Assembly: GCA_026025795.1 (NCBI GenBank)
Contig: JAPEUG010000051.1
Coordinates: forward strand, 45,782-65,781
DNA from: Thelocarpon superellum
Lineage: Eukaryota
Length of the DNA: 20,000 nt
Reading direction: 5' to 3'
Made by a program: the position numbers and the translations under genes. The notes beneath the pieces are model-generated. The model had not been told where the DNA came from. It saw only the letters and a list, made by a program, of their open reading frames with translations, and did not search any database. Positions 3,527 to 14,465 of this stretch are shown here, in pieces (positions within the stretch are counted from its first letter, which is position 1; each line of letters starts with the position of its first letter).

Positions 3527-5427
<1,901 letters not shown>

Positions 5428-6031
5428 GGTCGTTCTGGGAGCGAGCCGATGAAAAAAAGACTGGTGCTGGAGAAATGGGGTTGATAAGGAGATCCAAGTA
5501 CGGGAGGAGGTAGTAAGGTGGCAATCCGAGCATATCAAGATATGACATATCGAGGGTCGTACTCGGTACTTAAGAAGAGGAAGCAGAATGCGAGTGAGAA
5601 GACGTGTGTCTACTCAAACACAGATTCAGATTCAATTTCAGATGTAGATTGGACCGTCTCTTCTTTTCTCTTTCTACCTTCCTACCTACCTATCTACGGG
5701 GAACGGGATAGCTACACGATTGTTCCATGAATGTCCACAGTGCTATGTTCAGTGGCGGTGATGAAACTGACCACCGAGGCCCAATCAAACGGGTCAGCGT
5801 CATCCGCGGGTGGGGACGCTGGTGCTTCAGGTAGTGGTGGGCCATACTGGCTGGGCTCGGCGCTCCCCAAAGGCCACAAAGATTGCATGCATGCAATGAG
5901 TATGGTAGACGGAGTAGACTCGATTACACTTCTGTGTTGTTTCTCTCTCTTCTCTCCTCTCTCTTCTTTCTTTCGTGCTCGCTCGCTCGATACTCGCTGG
6001 TACGCTGACTCACTTGCTTCCTCCCTTCCTG

Positions 6032-6121
6032 CTTCCCTCCCTACCTCGTTTCATCGCTCCGTCATTCCATTCTCCCTCCCCACTTCCCTCCCTACCTCGT
6101 TTCATCGCTCCGTCATTCCAT
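6032..6121. repeat. 39-bp exact direct repeat (6032-6070 and 6083-6121, period 51) in a pyrimidine-rich intergenic/3'UTR region
   Basis: CTTCCCTCCCTACCTCGTTTCATCGCTCCGTCATTCCAT occurs twice, 12 nt apart. Confidence 0.9.
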
Positions 6122-6183: not shown

Positions 6184-8256
6184 TCATAATTCCAGCTGCA
6201 ACTCCGTCACGCGCTGGTACATCTCTAGTGCGCTATCGCTGTCTCGAAACTACGTCTTCATGTATTAGTCATCGGAGTCATGTGAAGATGTGTGTACGGA
6301 GGGTGAGACACGGGAGACGGGAGACGGGAGAGGGGAGAGGAGCGACTATATCACCTTCAACTGCATCATGGTGGGTTTCCCCCCCTCTAGAATGGTCAGC
6401 ATGATGGACCGACTGGATTTCGTCGACGTGGGCACGGCGCCCTCGGGACTGAGCAGTTTCATGTTCTTGTAGATGGGCGCATTGAGAATGACGCGGTACA
6501 CGCCCGACGCGCGCATCAGTAGTCGCGCGCTCGTCTTCATCGTCGTGTCCACGCCTTCATCCTCCTCCTCGTCTTGTTCTTCTTCTTGCCCGTTGCCGCC
6601 TTCGTTGCCTTCGTTGCCTTCGTCCTCGTGGCTGGAGGGCGGCGGAGGGCGCGACGCGTTCACTTTTAACACTCCCGCGCCTCGCTCCTTCCATCCGTGC
6701 TCCGCTGCGTTGTCGCCGCGCATTAGATGGTACAATTTCGCGTGGCCGGAAAAGACCGTCTCTTCGTCTTCTTCACCCGTCTCGACTGCATCGTGATGTC
6801 TGTTAGCGTGCTGGACTCTCATATGGCCACTTCCCCCTGCTCACCCTCTTGTTGTTGGAACCGGCGGTCTTCGCTGGCTTGTCTTGCCTTCTCACCGTCC
6901 TCGCCATTGCCGTCAGCATCACCATCACCCTCGTCGTCCTCGTCGTCATCGTCTTCATCATCGCCTTCTGGCGCTCCAAATGCCTTGGACGGATGGTCAC
7001 TCAGCCCAATGATCCCCGTCCCTGTCTTGGAGGTGAAGCTTGTGAGTCCACCCTTGGATCCGCCGAAGCCACCCGTAAGACCACCACCAAGACCTTCGCC
7101 AAGTTTTCCAAATCCAGACGTAGTATTGGAGCCAAAGACCAAGGGCGTGCCGCCCAGCGCTCCTCCGAATGTGCTCGACGACGGAGATTTTTTCGCCGCC
7201 AACCCGGCGAAGCCTGAGGCTGTCGGATTGCTCGCCCCGAGCGTGCCAAATGGAGAGGCATTAGATCCAGCCAGGGCGGCAAATCCTGATGCAGCAAAGG
7301 CCGATGAGGACTGTTCCGATGCCTCTTTGCTCTCGTTTGCTTCGCTCGAGGTCCCTACAGTATTTCCCGACTTCGGGCTGCCTAACGTGGCAAACGGTGA
7401 GATAGCTGACGTATTGGCGAAGCCGCTGGTGGGAGGGACCTTCGAAAGTAGTCTCAGCAACGTAGATAGCTTTACAGCTTGGACCCCAACATACCTTGGC
7501 GGGCTCCTTGGATTCCTTGCTTACCGCTTCTTGCGACGCGTCTCGATATCGCTTCTTCTCCGGTTGATCGCGGAAGATTCGGCTCGTTCGATTGGTTGTC
7601 GTCGTTACTCGATCTGGTTCCTCCGACCCTCTTTGCTCCTCCGTAGACTCGTCCTTCGCGGGCTCATCCTCCCTAGCGTGATCTTTGTCGAATTGGTCCC
7701 GGCTCCGCTTCTTCTTCGGCGATGCCAGTCGTTCCTTGGCATCCTCCATGGACGCATCGGCAGTGGCTGAGGGCGACACAGGTGTATCGCCAATGGTTGG
7801 GGAAGAGCTGGTAGGAACATTCTCCGCGTCGTTCTCCTGCGCGGGGATCGATGCGATTGGCGTCTGAGGCCGATCTGCCGACGCATCTTCATCACCGGCT
7901 GCGGGCCTATCCGAAAGCTCCAAGATCCCTTCCATTCCTCCCTTGGTGGTCAAGGTCGTCGAAGAGGGGACGACGGCTCCATCCTTTCCTTCGATCTTGC
8001 GTTCAACGGCGGGTCCTCCAGTGGCCGCACCGTTCTCCCTCTCGTCTCCTTTCTTATGGGACGTATGGGATGAGGAACGTGCGACGGATGTTTGTGCCTG
8101 CTCCAGGACGTCATCCACGCCTCCCTCTGATCCTGACGCTGTCGACCGCATCTTGCCCGACTGATTTAGCACACCCAGGCTCGCGTTCTTGAGCTTTTCT
8201 CGCACGGGACGCTCATTATCATTGTCGCTGGGCGAATCTTCTTCGGTGGAGGGCAT
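6184..8256 (-). CDS. FG-repeat, RanBD (RanBP1-domain) protein, Yrb2/RanBP3/Nup56-like; 4 exons: 8256-7495, 7439-6845, 6785-6355, 6249-6184 (~617 aa)
   Basis: Acidic N-terminus with NLS-like PKKKRSRD and PEKKRYR. Central FG/GF-rich region (SPFG, TFGG, SGFG, GGFGG, AFG). C-terminal RanBD: VETGEEDEETVF...WKERGAGVLKVN...ARLLMRASGVYRVILN. Introns 7494-7440, 6844-6786 and 6354-6250; the last has a CTAAT branch site and adds terminal exon FRDSDSALEMYQRVTELQLEL*. Confidence 0.82.
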
Positions 8257-9429
8257 TTCGGGTGTCAGGCCGTAGTAGGAAGGGTGGAGTCGGTTGACGT
8301 GGGTCTAAATGAAACAAAGCAAGTCAAGTCTGTTCAAGGCGGAGGATCAGCGCCGATCCCAATGATTGTATGCGTCGGGCCGTTGGGAATGCCTTCACAG
8401 AGCCTCATTTGTAGCTTGCGGCCGTAGAAAGGTTGAACGTGAGGGTAGGGGCCTGACCTATTGCGTTGGATAAGTAGCAGCCGCAGAGGGAAAGGACCCT
8501 GGACTGTGCAGTGGGATCACTTGTGTTACTCGCACGACGAGATGGCCTTCACCGTTGACCGTTCACGAAGGCCTTAGTCTGATCACGCCCGGTGCATTGC
8601 CAAAGCCGCAAGATTGAGTCCACTAGGACCGTCGTGGTCAAGAGGCTCGTGGACGGAGACACTCTCTCCACAGAACGGTACCAAGCGGCCCTACGAAGCG
8701 TAGTGGCCACGAGACCGGCCTCGAGAGGGTCTTCGGGGAACGGCGGGTATGGACAGATCTGTCTCGAGGGTGGCTCTATCGAGGAATTGACCGCTCACAT
8801 GCGTAGGCACCGGTCAGTTTCCGATACGAGGTCGGCCTCGATTAATTCAGGTGGGGGGTGACGGGGTTTTCTGGTCCCGTCCGCTCAACACGCGGGCGCC
8901 GGAGACGGCAGAGTGCACAACAGAGCCAAGAGATCCGATGATCCGAGACTTACGAGATTCGACGGGGATGAGGGTTCGTGAAAGGAGAGAGTCGGGCAGC
9001 CGGGCAGCAGCAATAGCGACAGTCTGGCCGGTGAGATGTGGTTACGCATTGATAGGCCAGGACCGCGAATTAGCGACCGACGTGCCCCCGCAAATCACAC
9101 GTCAATCTCGCGCCGCGGTGTCGTGGGCGTGGGGAGGCCCACTTGCCGCGGGTCCGTAGTGCAGAATCAAACCGGCACCGGAGCCAGTCAGAGCATTGCC
9201 CAGGCCACCGACGCGACCGCTGCTGGTCCTCTTCGAGGTCGCATTCGACTCTCCCTCCGAGCGTCGACGCAAGATTACGCTTGACGCGTGCATGGCTGGC
9301 ACTTGGCACTTGGCACAGCGTCCTGGATACATGTCTGCCTATCCGTCCTGATACATCAAGGTGCATTTACAGTGATCCGATAAAGAGATGAAGGAGCCAA
9401 GGGGTATTCGGTGGACCACGTGCTCCAGC

Positions 9430-10484
9430 TCAGCTGATGAAGCAGAGACATCCCAGGCCCACGTAGAAGACGAACAGCGGGTAGACGGCAATCCCCACCC
9501 GATTCTTCACCACTCCCGACCCGCCCAAGATACTGACGCCCGCTGCCAAGGACCAGCCCACCAAGACAATGTAGACGGGGATGCGAGCGATCGTCGGCAA
9601 GTGTAGGGCGCTGAACATGGCCGCCAGCACCAAGGGAAAGAGCGTGTAGCCGATGAGACAGATCGACTGGAAGAATGAACTGTCTCACTGCGTCAGCTCG
9701 GGTGGTGGGGTGAGTATTCGACTGCTCCAGCGACTCACATGTTTCCGCCGAGTAGCTTGATCTGCAGCGTCACCACCGCCTCACCGATCCAGACCATGGC
9801 AAAGACGCCCGAGAAGACGAGGGACTTCTGTGCCTCTTGGGCGGAGAGCGAGAGGAGTAAGGAGAGCAGCAGACAAAATACGAGCGGGCCCCTGTACAAG
9901 ACCGGTGAGCATAGAAGATCATGGCGGCCCGGAGTGATGGGCCGTATCATACCACAAGTCCCAATCGCGCAGGCCCTCGCTCATGCCTCCTTGAAGCACC
10001 ACGTCGGCGTCTGGCCACCGACCGACCCCCAATAAGCCGCCAACCCCTTCGCGCTGGGCACCACCAATGCCGCCGCCTCGTTGCAGAACGCCGCCCAACA
10101 AGTACTTGGGCCAAAGCACCTGGCGCATCTTCTCCCACACCGCCAGCAGGTCACGGGACAACGTCTCCCATACACTCTCATCAATGGTGTTGGTCGGTGC
10201 GCGCCGATCCTCGCCGGGAATCGAGGAGGTTAGGTACGATTGGTTTAGAGGGTTATTGGACGATTGTGGCTGGATGTGGCCCGTCAACGGCGCCCGTTGA
10301 GACGTGCTCGCAATCGGATCATCGAGATCATCCAAGGTCGCTGGTGTGCCATGTATCAGCGTTATTCGAGAGAACGATGGCCGTTCACGATGGGATCTGG
10401 CGTACCGTCATCCGGATCTATCAGATCAGGCTCGACCGAAGGGCTTGCATGATTATCATACGGGTTCGACGATGAGCTTGCCAT
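9430..10484 (-). CDS. Yip1-domain Golgi/ER membrane protein (Yip4/YIPF6-like); 4 exons: 10484-10406, 10340-9953, 9891-9739, 9679-9430 (289 aa)
   Basis: Motifs NTIDESVWETLSRDL, LRDWDLWGPLVFCLLLS, KLLGGNISFFQSICLIGYTLFPL and AVYPLFVFY, with multiple TM helices. Three GT-AG introns (10405-10341, 9952-9892, 9738-9680) restore the frame. Confidence 0.9.
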
Positions 10485-11195: not shown

Positions 11196-11529
11196 ATGGC
11201 GGACCTCTACTTTATTCTCACCATGGTTATGGCCATCTTTACCATCCTCACCGTCGCCCTCGTTGGCGCATGGTACGGAGGGTACCTCGAACCGATCATC
11301 GTTCGCGTGACCAAGTTCATCTTCATCTACAAAGCCAAGGCCGAAGAAAAGGCGTTGGAGGCGCAGGGGAAGAAGGCTGGGGTGGATTTCGTCAAAGGTA
11401 CCTTTCCTCCGACCCCACTCTCGCATGATATCCGCGGCACGTGCTCACTGATCAACAGGGGACTTGCATGGAAACAAGCAAGCCGACGCCGTCGAAAACG
11501 AGGGCTTGGGCGCACTGAAGAAGCTCTGA
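11196..11529 (+). CDS. Small single-pass membrane protein of unknown function; exons 11196-11397 and 11459-11529 (90 aa)
   Basis: ATG in AACATGG context and a hydrophobic N-terminal helix (LYFILTMVMAIFTILTVALVGAWYGG). A 61-nt intron GTACCT...CTGAT..CAACAG gives a charged tail KAKAEEKALEAQGKKAGVDFVKGDLHGNKQADAVENEGLGALKKL*. Confidence 0.7.
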
Positions 11530-11806
11530 TAATATTGGCACGATTCAAGCCCTGATCCTGCTGCGATTTGTGGAGAAAAATGGAGCCTGCTGTACTTCTG
11601 TGCCGATGGTAGAATGTAAACTGGTGTTGCGGCTGTGCAAAAACAAACGATAGACCTACATGCCTGTGAAGTTTAGCTGCACAGTTTTTGGACAGAATAG
11701 CATTCTCTGGAGACCGGAAATTAAAGTCGATGAGGTAGAAAGATCCGCCCAATGATGCAAGTACGGATGATAAATCCGATGTTGAGGAATAAACTTGAGT
11801 TGAGTT

Positions 11807-11813
11807 TATATAA
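11807..11813 (+). promoter_or_regulatory. Putative TATA element upstream of the tRNA-Pro gene
   Basis: TATATAA lies 31-25 nt upstream of the mature tRNA 5' end (11838), the typical TFIIIB/TBP position. Confidence 0.5.
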
Positions 11814-11873
11814 TAGAATAGGCCACTTAACTCGACCGGCTCAATGGTCTAGTGGTATGATTGTCGCTTCGGG

Positions 11874-11937
11874 ATTTCATCGCCTGAGTGTTAGAAGCAC
11901 TCTTCTGCGGTTACACTTTGGTGAAGCCATAGAAAAA
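11874..11937 (+). other. Canonical-position (37/38) tRNA intron, 64 nt
   Basis: Starts one base 3' of the anticodon and lacks GT-AG ends. Contains hairpins GAGTGT/GCACTC and TTTCATC/GGTGAAG. Confidence 0.85.
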
Positions 11938-11959
11938 TGTGACAGGTCCCGGGTTCAAA

Positions 11960-12009
11960 GTAAATCTTTCATCCTAACTCCTTTGACCCATTAACTTACT
12001 GTTCGTTAG
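11960..12009 (+). other. 50-nt GT-AG (spliceosomal-type) intron inserted in the tRNA T-loop between positions 59 and 60
   Basis: GTAAAT donor, branch-like CTAAC (11974-11978) and TTAAC (11991-11995), pyrimidine-rich body, TTAG acceptor. Exact removal restores T-loop TTCAAAT. Confidence 0.75.
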
Positions 12010-12040
12010 TCCCGGTTGAGCCCCAACTCAACTTGCCTTC

Positions 12041-12046
12041 TTTTTT
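12041..12046 (+). terminator. RNA polymerase III terminator (T6) of the tRNA-Pro gene
   Basis: TTTTTT begins 18 nt after the discriminator base. Confidence 0.7.
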
Positions 12047-12333: not shown

Positions 12334-14433
12334 ATGGTTCTCCAAGACTTCTTTCTCCCCAAGACGAGCGCTTCAAGTCGAAAAGCACGCCGCGGCTTGT
12401 CGTGGAGCTCCTCGTCCTTGACGCGCTCCTTTCCGGCCCGCGCCCCAGCCCAAGATGCCAGGTACATTTGGGACGAGGCGATGCTGGAGGAGGAAAAGTC
12501 GCCAGAGGAGGCGGATCTGAAAACGCTCAACGGCTCTCTCGCTCTGCTGGCCTCGATCTTCCCGGACGTGCAGCCCGAGGTCTTCCGAGAGATGCTCTCC
12601 AGCTACGGCGAGGAGAGCAGGCTGCATGTTGTCACGGAGGCGCTCCTCAAACACAAGGCCAAGTGGGTGCGAGGTCAGTGGCGAGTACCCGGGAAAGACG
12701 GTCCTGCGGGACCGACGAGATCAGCGGCGGCGTCAGCAAATGCTGGCGGGGCAATGAGCCTCGCGGTCGAGGAGCGCTTTCGCAGTGAACCCTACAAAAG
12801 AGCGGTACGCGGGGCTCTCTACCAGGAATTCCGAGATCTATCACACTCCGCCATCAACGCCGTGCTTGCCGAGCACAACTACTCCTATACCTTGAGCCGG
12901 CCGACGCTCGTCGCCCTCTCCTCCAAGTCATGGCGCTCCTCGCTCTCCTCCTTCTTCACGCGACGCAAACCATCCGTGTCCATGTCTACGGCGGTCAACC
13001 CGCTGCTCGTGTGGCGCCTGGTCGAGGGCGGGACGGACGAGTCGATCCCGATGCTACGGAGCACGGGCTCCGCCGAGCTGGACCGAGAACTGTTTGAGTC
13101 CTTGATTCGCCCCCTACAGCAGACCACCAAGGAGGCCAAGGAAGACCGAGACCACGAGATGGCGCTGCAGGCAAACGAGGCCGAGGCCGAGGCGGTCAAC
13201 GCCATGTACGAATGCGGATGCTGCTTCTCATCGACGACATTTGAACAGATGGTGGCCTGCGACCGAGGGGGGCACTGCGTTTGCTTCAGCTGTGTACGCC
13301 ACGTGGTCCAGGAAGCGCTCTTCGGGCAGGGCTGGGCAAAGAACGTGGATGGGGGTGGCAAACTCCGGTGCATTACACCCATGCCGGACGATCGACTGGA
13401 CTGCGAGGGCCGCATCCCCTCCGACTTGCTTCATCGAGCTCTAGTGGAAGAACGCGGAGGGGAAGAGGTGTGGCAGAAGCTGGAGGAACGAGTCGCCAGC
13501 GACGCATTACAAAAGAGCCAAGTCCCGCTGGTACGATGTCCGTTCTGCCCCTACGCCGAGGTGGACGACGTCCAGATCCACGCGTCGAGCGACACGTGGC
13601 GCATCAAACGAGCGGGCATGTGCTCGCTCACGACCATTCTCCTAGTCATGGTGTCGGGGGCCTTTTCCTTCTTCCTCTCCTTCTTCCTCCTCATCACCAT
13701 CCTCACGCTTCTACACCCCTCGACTCCCTCCCTCCCCGCCCAACTTTCCACGCAGCTCTCCGCCTCACTCACGCGCCTGGCCCGACGCCGACGCGGGCTG
13801 AAATTCACATGCCAATCGCCCATGTGCGCCCGGTCCTCGTGCATGTCATGCGAGAAGGAATGGCGCGACATCCACATCTGCTACGAGTCGGAACGGCTCG
13901 CGTTGCGCGCACACGTGGAACGGGCCATGTCATCAGCGGTCAAGCGGACGTGTCCAAGATGCAATCTCTCCTTCGTCAAGGCATCGGGATGCAACAAACT
14001 GACGTGCGTGTGCGGGTACCACATGTGCTACGTTTGCCGCAAGGAGATTGGAAACGAGGGCTACCGGCACTTCTGCGAGCACTTCCGGCCCAAGGGCGCC
14101 GGGGCCTGCGAAGTCTGCGACAAGTGCGACCTGTACCGCGCCGAGGACGAGGCGCGCGCGGTGCGCCAGGCGGCGGAGGACGCGGAACGCGAATGGCGCA
14201 GCAACGAGACCGGTGCAGGCGGCCGCGCGCTCGAAGATTGGCGGTGGGAACGGCGGGATGACTTTGCCGGCACGAGTGGCGGCTTGAGCGGCATCGGCAG
14301 TGGTAGTGGCGGTGGGGCAGGTGCAACGTGGCTCCGGCCGAGTACATGGCAGGGCTGGACGCATCTTCAGAAGAAAAGCGCAGCACAAGATGCGTTTGAC
14401 TGGCTGGTGGAGAATCTGGTGGAGCTCCCATGA
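12334..14433 (+). CDS. RBR (RING1-IBR-RING2) E3 ubiquitin ligase, RNF216/TRIAD3-like, with N-terminal CUE-like motif and a TM segment; intronless, 699 aa
   Basis: RING1 ECGCCFS...CDRGGHCVCFSC...LRC. IBR CPFC...FTCQSPMCARSSCMSC...HIC. RING2 CPRCNLSFVKASGCNKLTCVCGYHMCYVC with the catalytic Cys in GCNK. Tail YRHFCEHF...CEVCDKCDLY. N-terminal LLASIFPD CUE-like motif. Confidence 0.85.
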   Translation: MVLQDFFLPKTSASSRKARRGLSWSSSSLTRSFPARAPAQDARYIWDEAMLEEEKSPEEADLKTLNGSLALLASIFPDVQPEVFREMLSSYGEESRLHVVTEALLKHKAKWVRGQWRVPGKDGPAGPTRSAAASANAGGAMSLAVEERFRSEPYKRAVRGALYQEFRDLSHSAINAVLAEHNYSYTLSRPTLVALSSKSWRSSLSSFFTRRKPSVSMSTAVNPLLVWRLVEGGTDESIPMLRSTGSAELDRELFESLIRPLQQTTKEAKEDRDHEMALQANEAEAEAVNAMYECGCCFSSTTFEQMVACDRGGHCVCFSCVRHVVQEALFGQGWAKNVDGGGKLRCITPMPDDRLDCEGRIPSDLLHRALVEERGGEEVWQKLEERVASDALQKSQVPLVRCPFCPYAEVDDVQIHASSDTWRIKRAGMCSLTTILLVMVSGAFSFFLSFFLLITILTLLHPSTPSLPAQLSTQLSASLTRLARRRRGLKFTCQSPMCARSSCMSCEKEWRDIHICYESERLALRAHVERAMSSAVKRTCPRCNLSFVKASGCNKLTCVCGYHMCYVCRKEIGNEGYRHFCEHFRPKGAGACEVCDKCDLYRAEDEARAVRQAAEDAEREWRSNETGAGGRALEDWRWERRDDFAGTSGGLSGIGSGSGGGAGATWLRPSTWQGWTHLQKKSAAQDAFDWLVENLVELP

Positions 14434-14465
14434 GGATGAAGTATTTACTTAATCGTATGCCTATA

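Follow-up and report, generated by a model that had tools for sequence, protein, structure and literature searches.

Can a single nuclear transfer RNA (tRNA) gene depend on two different splicing machineries for its maturation? Spliceosomal introns and tRNA introns are treated in textbooks as separate systems that serve separate classes of transcript. The two intron types have even been called "completely unrelated" (PMC12530127). The question is raised by a tRNA-Pro gene with a CGG anticodon on the forward strand of a 20,000-nucleotide (nt) stretch of Thelocarpon superellum DNA (contig JAPEUG010000051.1, positions 45,782 to 65,781), which is referred to here at its full 20-kb length as the window. 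Direct reading of the sequence, together with a script, places this gene at window positions 11838-12023 and divides it into three exons of 36, 22 and 14 nt. From the sequence, we consider it probable that this locus is a live nuclear tRNA-Pro(CGG) gene carrying both an intron of the type removed by the tRNA splicing endonuclease SEN and an ectopic spliceosomal intron of the U2-type GT-AG class. The parts of the gene, with the candidate splicing signals in its second interruption, are as follows.

11838 to 11873, forward strand: exon 1, 36 nt, holding the 5' strand of the acceptor stem, the D arm, the 5' strand of the anticodon stem, the anticodon CGG and G37.
11874 to 11937, forward strand: intron 1, 64 nt, a canonical tRNA-type intron at 37/38 (ARAGORN) that starts ATTTC and ends AAAAA.
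11938 to 11959, forward strand: exon 2, 22 nt, holding position 38, the 3' strand of the anticodon stem, the variable loop, the 5' strand of the T stem and T-loop positions 54-59.
11960 to 12009, forward strand: insert 2, 50 nt, a candidate spliceosomal intron at 59/60 that splits the B-box region and runs GTAAAT...GTTAG.
11960 to 11965, forward strand: candidate 5' splice site GTAAAT, with A in place of the usual G at +5.
11974 to 11978, forward strand: branch-point-like motif CTAAC, its A lying 32 nt before the last base of the insert.
11991 to 11995, forward strand: branch-point-like motif TTAAC, its A lying 15 nt before the last base of the insert; the likelier branch site of the two.
12007 to 12009, forward strand: candidate 3' splice site TAG.
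12010 to 12023, forward strand: exon 3, 14 nt, holding T60, the 3' strand of the T stem, the 3' strand of the acceptor stem and the discriminator C73.

The gene is invisible to standard tools in its genomic form. ARAGORN returned 0 genes for the genomic sequence with the intron option either on or off, and Rfam gave no match anywhere in the 20-kb window, either at the gathering score or at E<=1. After in-silico deletion of positions 11960-12009, ARAGORN -i reported tRNA-Pro(cgg) whose anticodon loop is interrupted by a 64-nt intron. The resulting cloverleaf has a 7-nt anticodon loop and is paired in all its stems, among them an acceptor stem of 7 bp and a T stem of 5 bp that contain no mismatch. 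In exon 3, 12 of 14 bases form perfect pairs, five of them with exon 2 and seven with exon 1. Reading, script and ARAGORN thus return exactly the tripartite anatomy that the original prediction had described, with a 64-nt intron at 37/38, a GT-AG insert at 59/60 and exons of 36, 22 and 14 nt. The insert can also be moved one base to the left (58/59, AG...TA) and still leave a valid 7-nt T loop, and because this border is legal as well, GT-AG at 59/60 is the natural reading of the insert and not the sole one. The tripartite locus is more than chance, as seen from the pairing of exon 3 and from the presence of the same split gene in two independent metagenome contigs. No further tRNA-like element was found in the window with ARAGORN, Rfam or a B-box pattern. 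Since ARAGORN and Rfam both report nothing at the locus, routine annotation would list tRNA-Pro(CGG) as missing, and the genome would be scored without it.

Is the gene at work? Metagenome contigs were scanned with a pattern consisting of the two T-arm halves separated by GT-N(30-60)-AG, and 10 loci were returned. Two of these, L002 and L003, hold the same tRNA-Pro gene as the window, while the remaining eight proved to be chance matches in coding-looking DNA without a tRNA. L002 and L003 belong to the same species and are nearly identical, differing at two bases of intron 1. Between the window and L002, 71 of 72 exon positions are identical (36/36 in exon 1, 21/22 in exon 2 and 14/14 in exon 3), and the sole change, in exon 2, falls in the unpaired variable loop. 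L003 is likewise identical to the window throughout exon 1 (36/36) and exon 3 (14/14). The insert of L002/L003 sits exactly at 59/60 but is 57 nt long, reads GTACGT...TTTAG and is unrelated in sequence to that of the window.

Outside the exons, identity between the window and L002 was set against that of shuffled sequences, and amounts to 32/64 in intron 1 (shuffles 29.8±1.7), 31/60 in the 60 nt upstream (32.8±2.1), 30/60 in the 60 nt downstream (31.9±2.3) and 36/57 in insert 2 (30.6±1.9), the last being slightly above the shuffles. Comparison of L002 and L003 with the whole window by blastn and tblastx found nothing in common except the exons, and no homologue was found for the sole coding-looking open reading frame (ORF) in the flanks of L002. 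Judged by these comparisons, the two organisms appear to have diverged to saturation in unconstrained DNA, with all three exons intact. Because the exons were kept while introns and flanks were randomised, purifying selection on a working gene is indicated. Moreover, since the insertion site is common to both organisms and the insert sequences differ, the insert would be old and the exons would have been maintained since its arrival. The intact 14-nt exon that lies beyond the insert is unlike what is expected of a dead gene carrying an old insertion. On this basis the tRNA-Pro(CGG) gene is very probably functional. A tRNA of this kind would matter, as CCG accounts for 51 of the 150 proline codons (34%) in five ORFs of the window.

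The first of the two interruptions can be taken, from its position and sequence, for an ordinary SEN-type tRNA intron. In the window it starts with AT and ends with AA, shows no GT-AG and contains no T run longer than 3. Its site at 37/38, one base 3' of the anticodon, is the same in the window (ARAGORN) and in L002/L003. An anticodon-intron pair, which joins position 32 to the intron base at -3 of the 3' site (PMC10275265), would be possible in both species, as U32-A(-3) in the window and as U32-G(-3) in L002/L003. Intron 1 of L002 is 43 nt long and has only its ATTTC start in common with that of the window (L002 348-352, window 11874-11878), the rest of the two introns being unrelated. A contig of organism C (X7) carries a tRNA-Pro-like piece that matches 11845-11879, and its intron likewise starts with ATTTCA. 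This common start may reflect a constraint on the first intron bases beside G37.

Fungi other than that of the window have different introns at the 37/38 site. In one contig each from X3, a moss metagenome, and from X6 (organism B), exons 1 and 2 are separated by an intron 1 of 28 letters that differs from that of the window. Both alignments stop at 11959, which is the border between exon 2 and the insert (the shorter side measures 25 letters), and they do not run on into a shared G or GT, a weak hint that no insert is present there. A comparison set of eukaryotic tRNA-Pro genes comprised 10 pattern matches at nine loci, all taken as contaminants of prokaryote metagenome-assembled genomes (MAGs). 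Eight of these 10 genes are complete and uninterrupted, with an intact T loop and no intron; of the other two, one runs off the end of its contig and one is aberrant. The nine short contigs concerned (L011-L019) are filed under bacterial MAGs or isolates and carry typical eukaryotic tRNA-Pro genes, some of them in tandem with further eukaryote-type tRNAs; they are probably eukaryotic contamination of the assemblies.

The second interruption is the one for which the original prediction had invoked the nuclear spliceosome. Insert 2 of the window is bounded by GT and AG, has no internal AG, contains no T run longer than 3 and has a G+C content of 36%. At 50 nt in the window and 57 nt in L002, the inserts lie within the size range of five local mRNA introns of 46, 47, 61, 62 and 84 nt, four of them from a phosphoglucose isomerase (PGI) gene and one from the gene for protein P0121. 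In that order of genes, the local introns start with GTGAGT, GTAAGT, GTGAGT, GTACGT and GTACCT and end with CAG, TAG, AAG, TAG and CAG, while the inserts of the window and of L002/L003 all end with TAG. The 5' site of L002, GTACGT, is a full match to GTRNGT, as are four of the five local sites, whereas GTAAAT of the window has no G at +5. A yTRAy motif with its A 15 nt before the end of the insert is present in both species (TTAAC in the window, TTGAT in L002), and so is a CTRAY motif farther upstream (CTAAC with its A at 32 nt in the window, CTGAT with its A at 33 in L002). Some of the local mRNA introns have CTGAC, CTAAT or TTAAC 9-17 nt from their end, with TTAAC at 17 in PGI intron 4. We also composed an intron grammar (R at +3, T at +6, YAG, and yTRAy 8-40 nt from the end), which both inserts pass and which random composition-matched GT..AG sequences pass at a rate of 0.013 for 50-mers and 0.019 for 57-mers. 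Taken jointly with the gene being functional, a spliceosomal nature of insert 2 is on balance the reading we favor.

Several points weigh against this reading. The grammar was composed after the sequences had been seen and is passed by just two of the four PGI introns, so that the support it lends is moderate. In the window, the exon side of the 5' junction reads AAA/GT (the slash marking the cut) and not the usual AG/GT. The missing internal AG is not significant in the window (P 0.43) and is of only slight note in L002 (P 0.04). The scan pattern demanded both GT and AG, with the result that the borders in L002/L003 are as they are by construction, that inserts with other borders were missed, and that the presence of GT and AG in those two loci is not independent support. 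When a T-loop-insert pattern without the GT-AG requirement was used, there were 0 matches in genome contigs and 0 in viral contigs. Only two lineages with the split gene are known. Finally, the B box loses its last three positions to the insert, and with the box disrupted in this way, binding of TFIIIC may be impaired. The spliceosomal assignment made in the original prediction therefore stands in part: the same-site insert in a second species, the GTACGT start found there, the branch-like motifs, the lengths and the lack of a bulge-helix-bulge (BHB) speak for it, and the 5' site of the window, GTAAAT without G at +5, does not.

Other kinds of insert were considered in turn. No BHB could be formed around the junctions, as the central helix has one of four possible pairs in the window and none of four in L002, and the mirrored form has one of four and two of four, respectively; the minimum free energy folds of the window and L002 also lack the motif. 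The T-arm pieces fold no better than shuffled sequences (z 0.36 for the window, 0.18 for L002). A conserved structure within the insert was rejected, since the window insert can pair with the T arm and 5' site, that of L002 can pair with the 3' strand of the anticodon stem, and the z values are near 0. Fifty nucleotides are far too few for a self-splicing intron, and this possibility was discarded on length. A mobile element was rejected as well: neither the insert nor intron 1 has a second copy in the 20-kb window, and no terminal inverted repeat or target duplication is seen at the borders of the insert. The minus strand of the window insert contains GTAAGT, which could have signaled an antisense intron, but this motif is absent from L002 and was taken as chance. 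Cleavage of the type that Ire1 performs on HAC1 and XBP1 occurs in 7-nt hairpin loops with a CNG/CNGN-like consensus (PMC12530127). The junctions here read CAAA/GTAA and TTAG/TCCC in the window and CAAA/GTAC and TTAG/TCCC in L002, and in neither is there a G before the 5' cut or an Ire1-type hairpin in the folds; such a cut was likewise rejected.

If the gene is transcribed, which polymerase would be responsible? Two features flank the gene body in the window.

11807 to 11813, forward strand: TATA-like element TATATAA, read from the sequence, 31 to 25 nt upstream of the first base of the tRNA.
12041 to 12046, forward strand: run of six T residues (T6) resembling a terminator for RNA polymerase III (Pol III), 18 nt past the last base of the tRNA, its function being presumed.

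The TATATAA element may act as an upstream element for Pol III (or RNA polymerase II, Pol II). In L002/L003 the upstream region has ATAAAT at about -37 to -32, and downstream of L002 a T5 run starts 9 nt past the gene and is followed by T7. Both species are hence compatible with Pol III, having no T run above 3 in their introns and a T5-T6 run within 20 nt downstream. The A-box region is intact. The B-box motif is GGTTCRANNCC; at this locus the corresponding DNA reads GGTTCAAAGTA, the final CC being replaced by the first bases of the insert, and the locus is absent from the seven matches to the motif in the window (<=1 mismatch).

We infer from the sequence that the gene is expressed, that its transcription is most likely carried out by Pol III and that the mechanism of insert removal is spliceosomal. 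In the pathway we propose, the spliceosome would excise insert 2 at 59/60 as a lariat, probably as the first step. A 50-nt insert in the T loop blocks the elbow formed by the D and T loops, which is read by SEN, RNase P, RNase Z and the CCA enzyme, and for this reason the spliceosomal intron would probably have to leave first. Once the mature domain had been restored, SEN would cut out intron 1 and tRNA ligase would join the exons. The order in which the T-loop intron precedes the SEN step would thus follow from the dependence of SEN on the mature domain of the pre-tRNA (PMC10275265). Removal of D- and T-arm introns before the anticodon intron has been described for Cyanidioschyzon (PMC9602550).

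Even for a working gene, the spliceosome might act on a different transcript from the one proposed here. Spliceosomes normally act on Pol II transcripts (PMC8527467), and a Pol II transcript of the locus, whether read-through or separate, could lose insert 2 by co-transcriptional spliceosomal removal before RNase P and RNase Z released an intron-1-bearing pre-tRNA for SEN. The arrangement of the region would permit this: a small gene (11196-11529) has its stop codon 308 nt before the tRNA, a 699-amino-acid (aa) ORF (12334-14433) starts 310 nt after it, and all three are on the forward strand; in addition, the insert breaks up the B box in the DNA itself, and a TATA box at -31 can serve either polymerase. 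However, the T6 or T5 run just behind the gene and the lack of any T4 or longer run in the introns, seen in both species, answer a need of Pol III and not of Pol II. The A box is also in place, no conserved flank suggests a common host transcript, and U6 shows that Pol III transcripts can be spliced (PMC5855946), so we regard a Pol II route as unlikely. A live gene might instead lose its insert to a protein endonuclease and a ligase, for example a relaxed SEN of the kind found in Cyanidioschyzon or archaea, an Ire1-like or an unknown enzyme, with GT-AG being incidental. The non-canonical nuclear tRNA introns in the literature examined are indeed all of the endonuclease type (PMC9602550), the 5' site of the window is weak, and the search pattern itself demanded GT-AG in the second species. 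This explanation must nevertheless contend with the absence of a BHB in both species (one of four and none of four central pairs), the lack of a stable or common fold and junctions that do not lie in 7-nt loops of the CNG/CNGN type. It also leaves the GTACGT of L002, the matching distances of the branch-like motifs and the typical intron length unexplained, and it appears improbable to us.

There is, in addition, a small chance that the locus is an inactive copy, disabled by a 50-nt insertion, with CCG being read by another tRNA-Pro(CGG) or by tRNA-Pro(UGG). The rejection of the locus by standard finders and the broken B box would fit such a copy, as would the abnormality of the interruption, given that eight of the 10 comparison eukaryotic tRNA-Pro genes are uninterrupted. 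An inactive copy is hard to reconcile, however, with exons that are identical at 71 of 72 positions between organisms whose introns and flanks have been randomised, with the retention of exon 3 and of every stem pair, or with terminator-like T runs kept in both species. The common site with differing insert sequences argues in the same direction, because it indicates an old insert whose exons have been maintained since. A functional gene with a spliceosomal insert, transcribed most likely by Pol III, is thus the explanation we prefer.

How does this arrangement compare with known systems? The U6 intron of the fission yeast Schizosaccharomyces pombe is about 50 nt in size. U6 of this yeast is a Pol III transcript with a spliced mRNA-type intron, and spliceosomal introns exist in U6, U1, U2 and U5 small nuclear RNA (snRNA) genes as well as in rRNA genes (PMC5855946). 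Like the snRNA introns of S. pombe and further fungi (U6) and of Rhodotorula (U1, U2, U5), the insert would be a short, lineage-restricted GT-AG intron in a structured non-coding RNA gene (PMC5855946). Unlike those introns, its host RNA is a tRNA and not a component of the spliceosome, so that an origin in which the intron is reverse-spliced into an RNA of the catalytic center does not obviously apply. The U6 intron of S. pombe, to judge from the title of Frendewey 1990, carries a B-box-like sequence, whereas the tRNA-Pro insert interrupts the B box, and the tRNA-Pro gene differs from U6 further in having a second intron of a different class. Ectopic spliceosomal introns are also found in the nuclear rDNA of lichen-forming ascomycetes (Bhattacharya et al. 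2000, cited in PMC8527467), and yeast is able to remove one such lichen rDNA intron from a Pol I transcript (PMC8527467). The tRNA-Pro insert resembles these in being a candidate spliceosomal intron outside Pol II genes in lichen-related Pezizomycotina, but the rDNA introns sit in Pol I rRNA genes, and the available portion of that source mentions no tRNA case (PMC8527467).

Perhaps the closest parallel in anatomy is tRNA-Ile(UAU) of Cyanidioschyzon merolae, which has introns at 12/13, 37/38 and 53/54 (PMC9602550). There too a nuclear tRNA is encoded in at least three pieces, with an anticodon-loop intron and a T-arm intron, and the order of removal, non-canonical introns first, matches the order proposed for tRNA-Pro (PMC9602550). 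The T-arm insertion sites differ, being 59/60 in tRNA-Pro and 53/54 in C. merolae (PMC9602550). The introns of C. merolae are all of the hBHBh' form and are endonuclease substrates, whereas the tRNA-Pro insert has no BHB and carries GT-AG with branch-like signals. Archaeal tRNA introns of the non-canonical BHB kind, reportedly described by Marck and Grosjean in 2003, lie outside 37/38 and include examples in the T arm. Those archaeal introns depend on the BHB, which could not be formed around the tRNA-Pro insert. Our finding would probably extend the ectopic spliceosomal intron to tRNA and combine it with a canonical tRNA intron. No paper on a spliceosomal intron in a tRNA gene was found in the literature covered, with most subscription journals lying outside that coverage, and nothing relevant was found there on the genome or introns of Thelocarpon.

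The surroundings of the locus are those of a fungal genome. Thelocarpon belongs to the Thelocarpales, an order of pezizomycotine ascomycetes, and the window contains fungal genes for a protein kinase, PGI and ECM11. The PGI gene (3527-5427, forward strand) has four introns at 4027-4073, 4608-4653, 4903-4964 and 5240-5323 (47, 46, 62 and 84 nt), and its product after their removal equals all 553 residues of P0001, "MAG: glucose-6-phosphate isomerase [Thelocarpon superellum]" (NCBI). The PGI matches that rank next come mostly from other lichen-forming fungi and from allied lineages (earth-tongues, for example). In organism B, a contig passes over 4605-4657 and has seven different letters in between, and the PGI intron at 4608-4653 seems to be absent or replaced there. 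The small gene upstream of the tRNA encodes P0121, a "hypothetical protein" of 90 aa with an N-terminal hydrophobic stretch, for which a protein search returned only three further relatives. It has one intron of 61 nt (11398-11458), which starts with GTACCT and thus also has a 5' site without G at +5.

Other observations concern the sampling of this DNA and its neighboring genes. In the moss-metagenome run X3, short contigs match 4347-4716, 7591-7835, 8115-8283, 10097-10394, 11226-11382 and 14094-14437, with one to four differing letters each and a depth of about 3, which suggests that this fungus, or one very close to it, occurs there in small amounts. Run X1, which may be the source of the window, contains a contig, at depth 46 of 152, that lacks one base at 11570, and another contig that begins at 11952, within exon 2, which suggests a second haplotype or strain in the sample. 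Many X1 and X6 contigs have loose ends at 6925-6963, and 5938-6046 was skipped as repeats; the region at 6925-6963 is low-complexity acidic-repeat-like coding DNA common to several loci or organisms. On the reverse strand, the translations of ORF pieces at 9430-10407 resemble a Yip1-family membrane protein.

Whether tRNA-Pro(CGG) is the first nuclear tRNA to need both the spliceosome and SEN, its T-loop intron having been acquired before at least two lichen-related ascomycetes diverged and retained ever since, is a proposition that we consider evenly balanced. If it is true, the range of spliceosome substrates outside Pol II genes, which now takes in U6, other snRNAs and lichen rRNA, would be extended to tRNA. 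The gene would then offer a natural system for studying how a spliceosome assembles on a highly structured Pol III transcript of 190 nt that is probably uncapped, and how splicing is ordered with respect to RNase P and RNase Z, SEN and CCA addition. It would also bear on the origin of spliceosomal introns, which might for instance arise when an intron is reverse-spliced into an abundant nuclear RNA. The silence of ARAGORN and Rfam at the locus would expose a blind spot in tRNA annotation; genes of this kind would be invisible to tRNAscan-type tools, and some of the fungal isoacceptors that are listed as "missing" may simply be hidden. For the fungus itself, decoding of a common codon, CCG, would depend on mRNA-type splicing of what is probably a Pol III transcript. 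Finally, since lichen-related fungi already have ectopic spliceosomal introns in their rDNA, our findings suggest a lineage-wide tendency of these fungi to acquire spliceosomal introns at ectopic sites.

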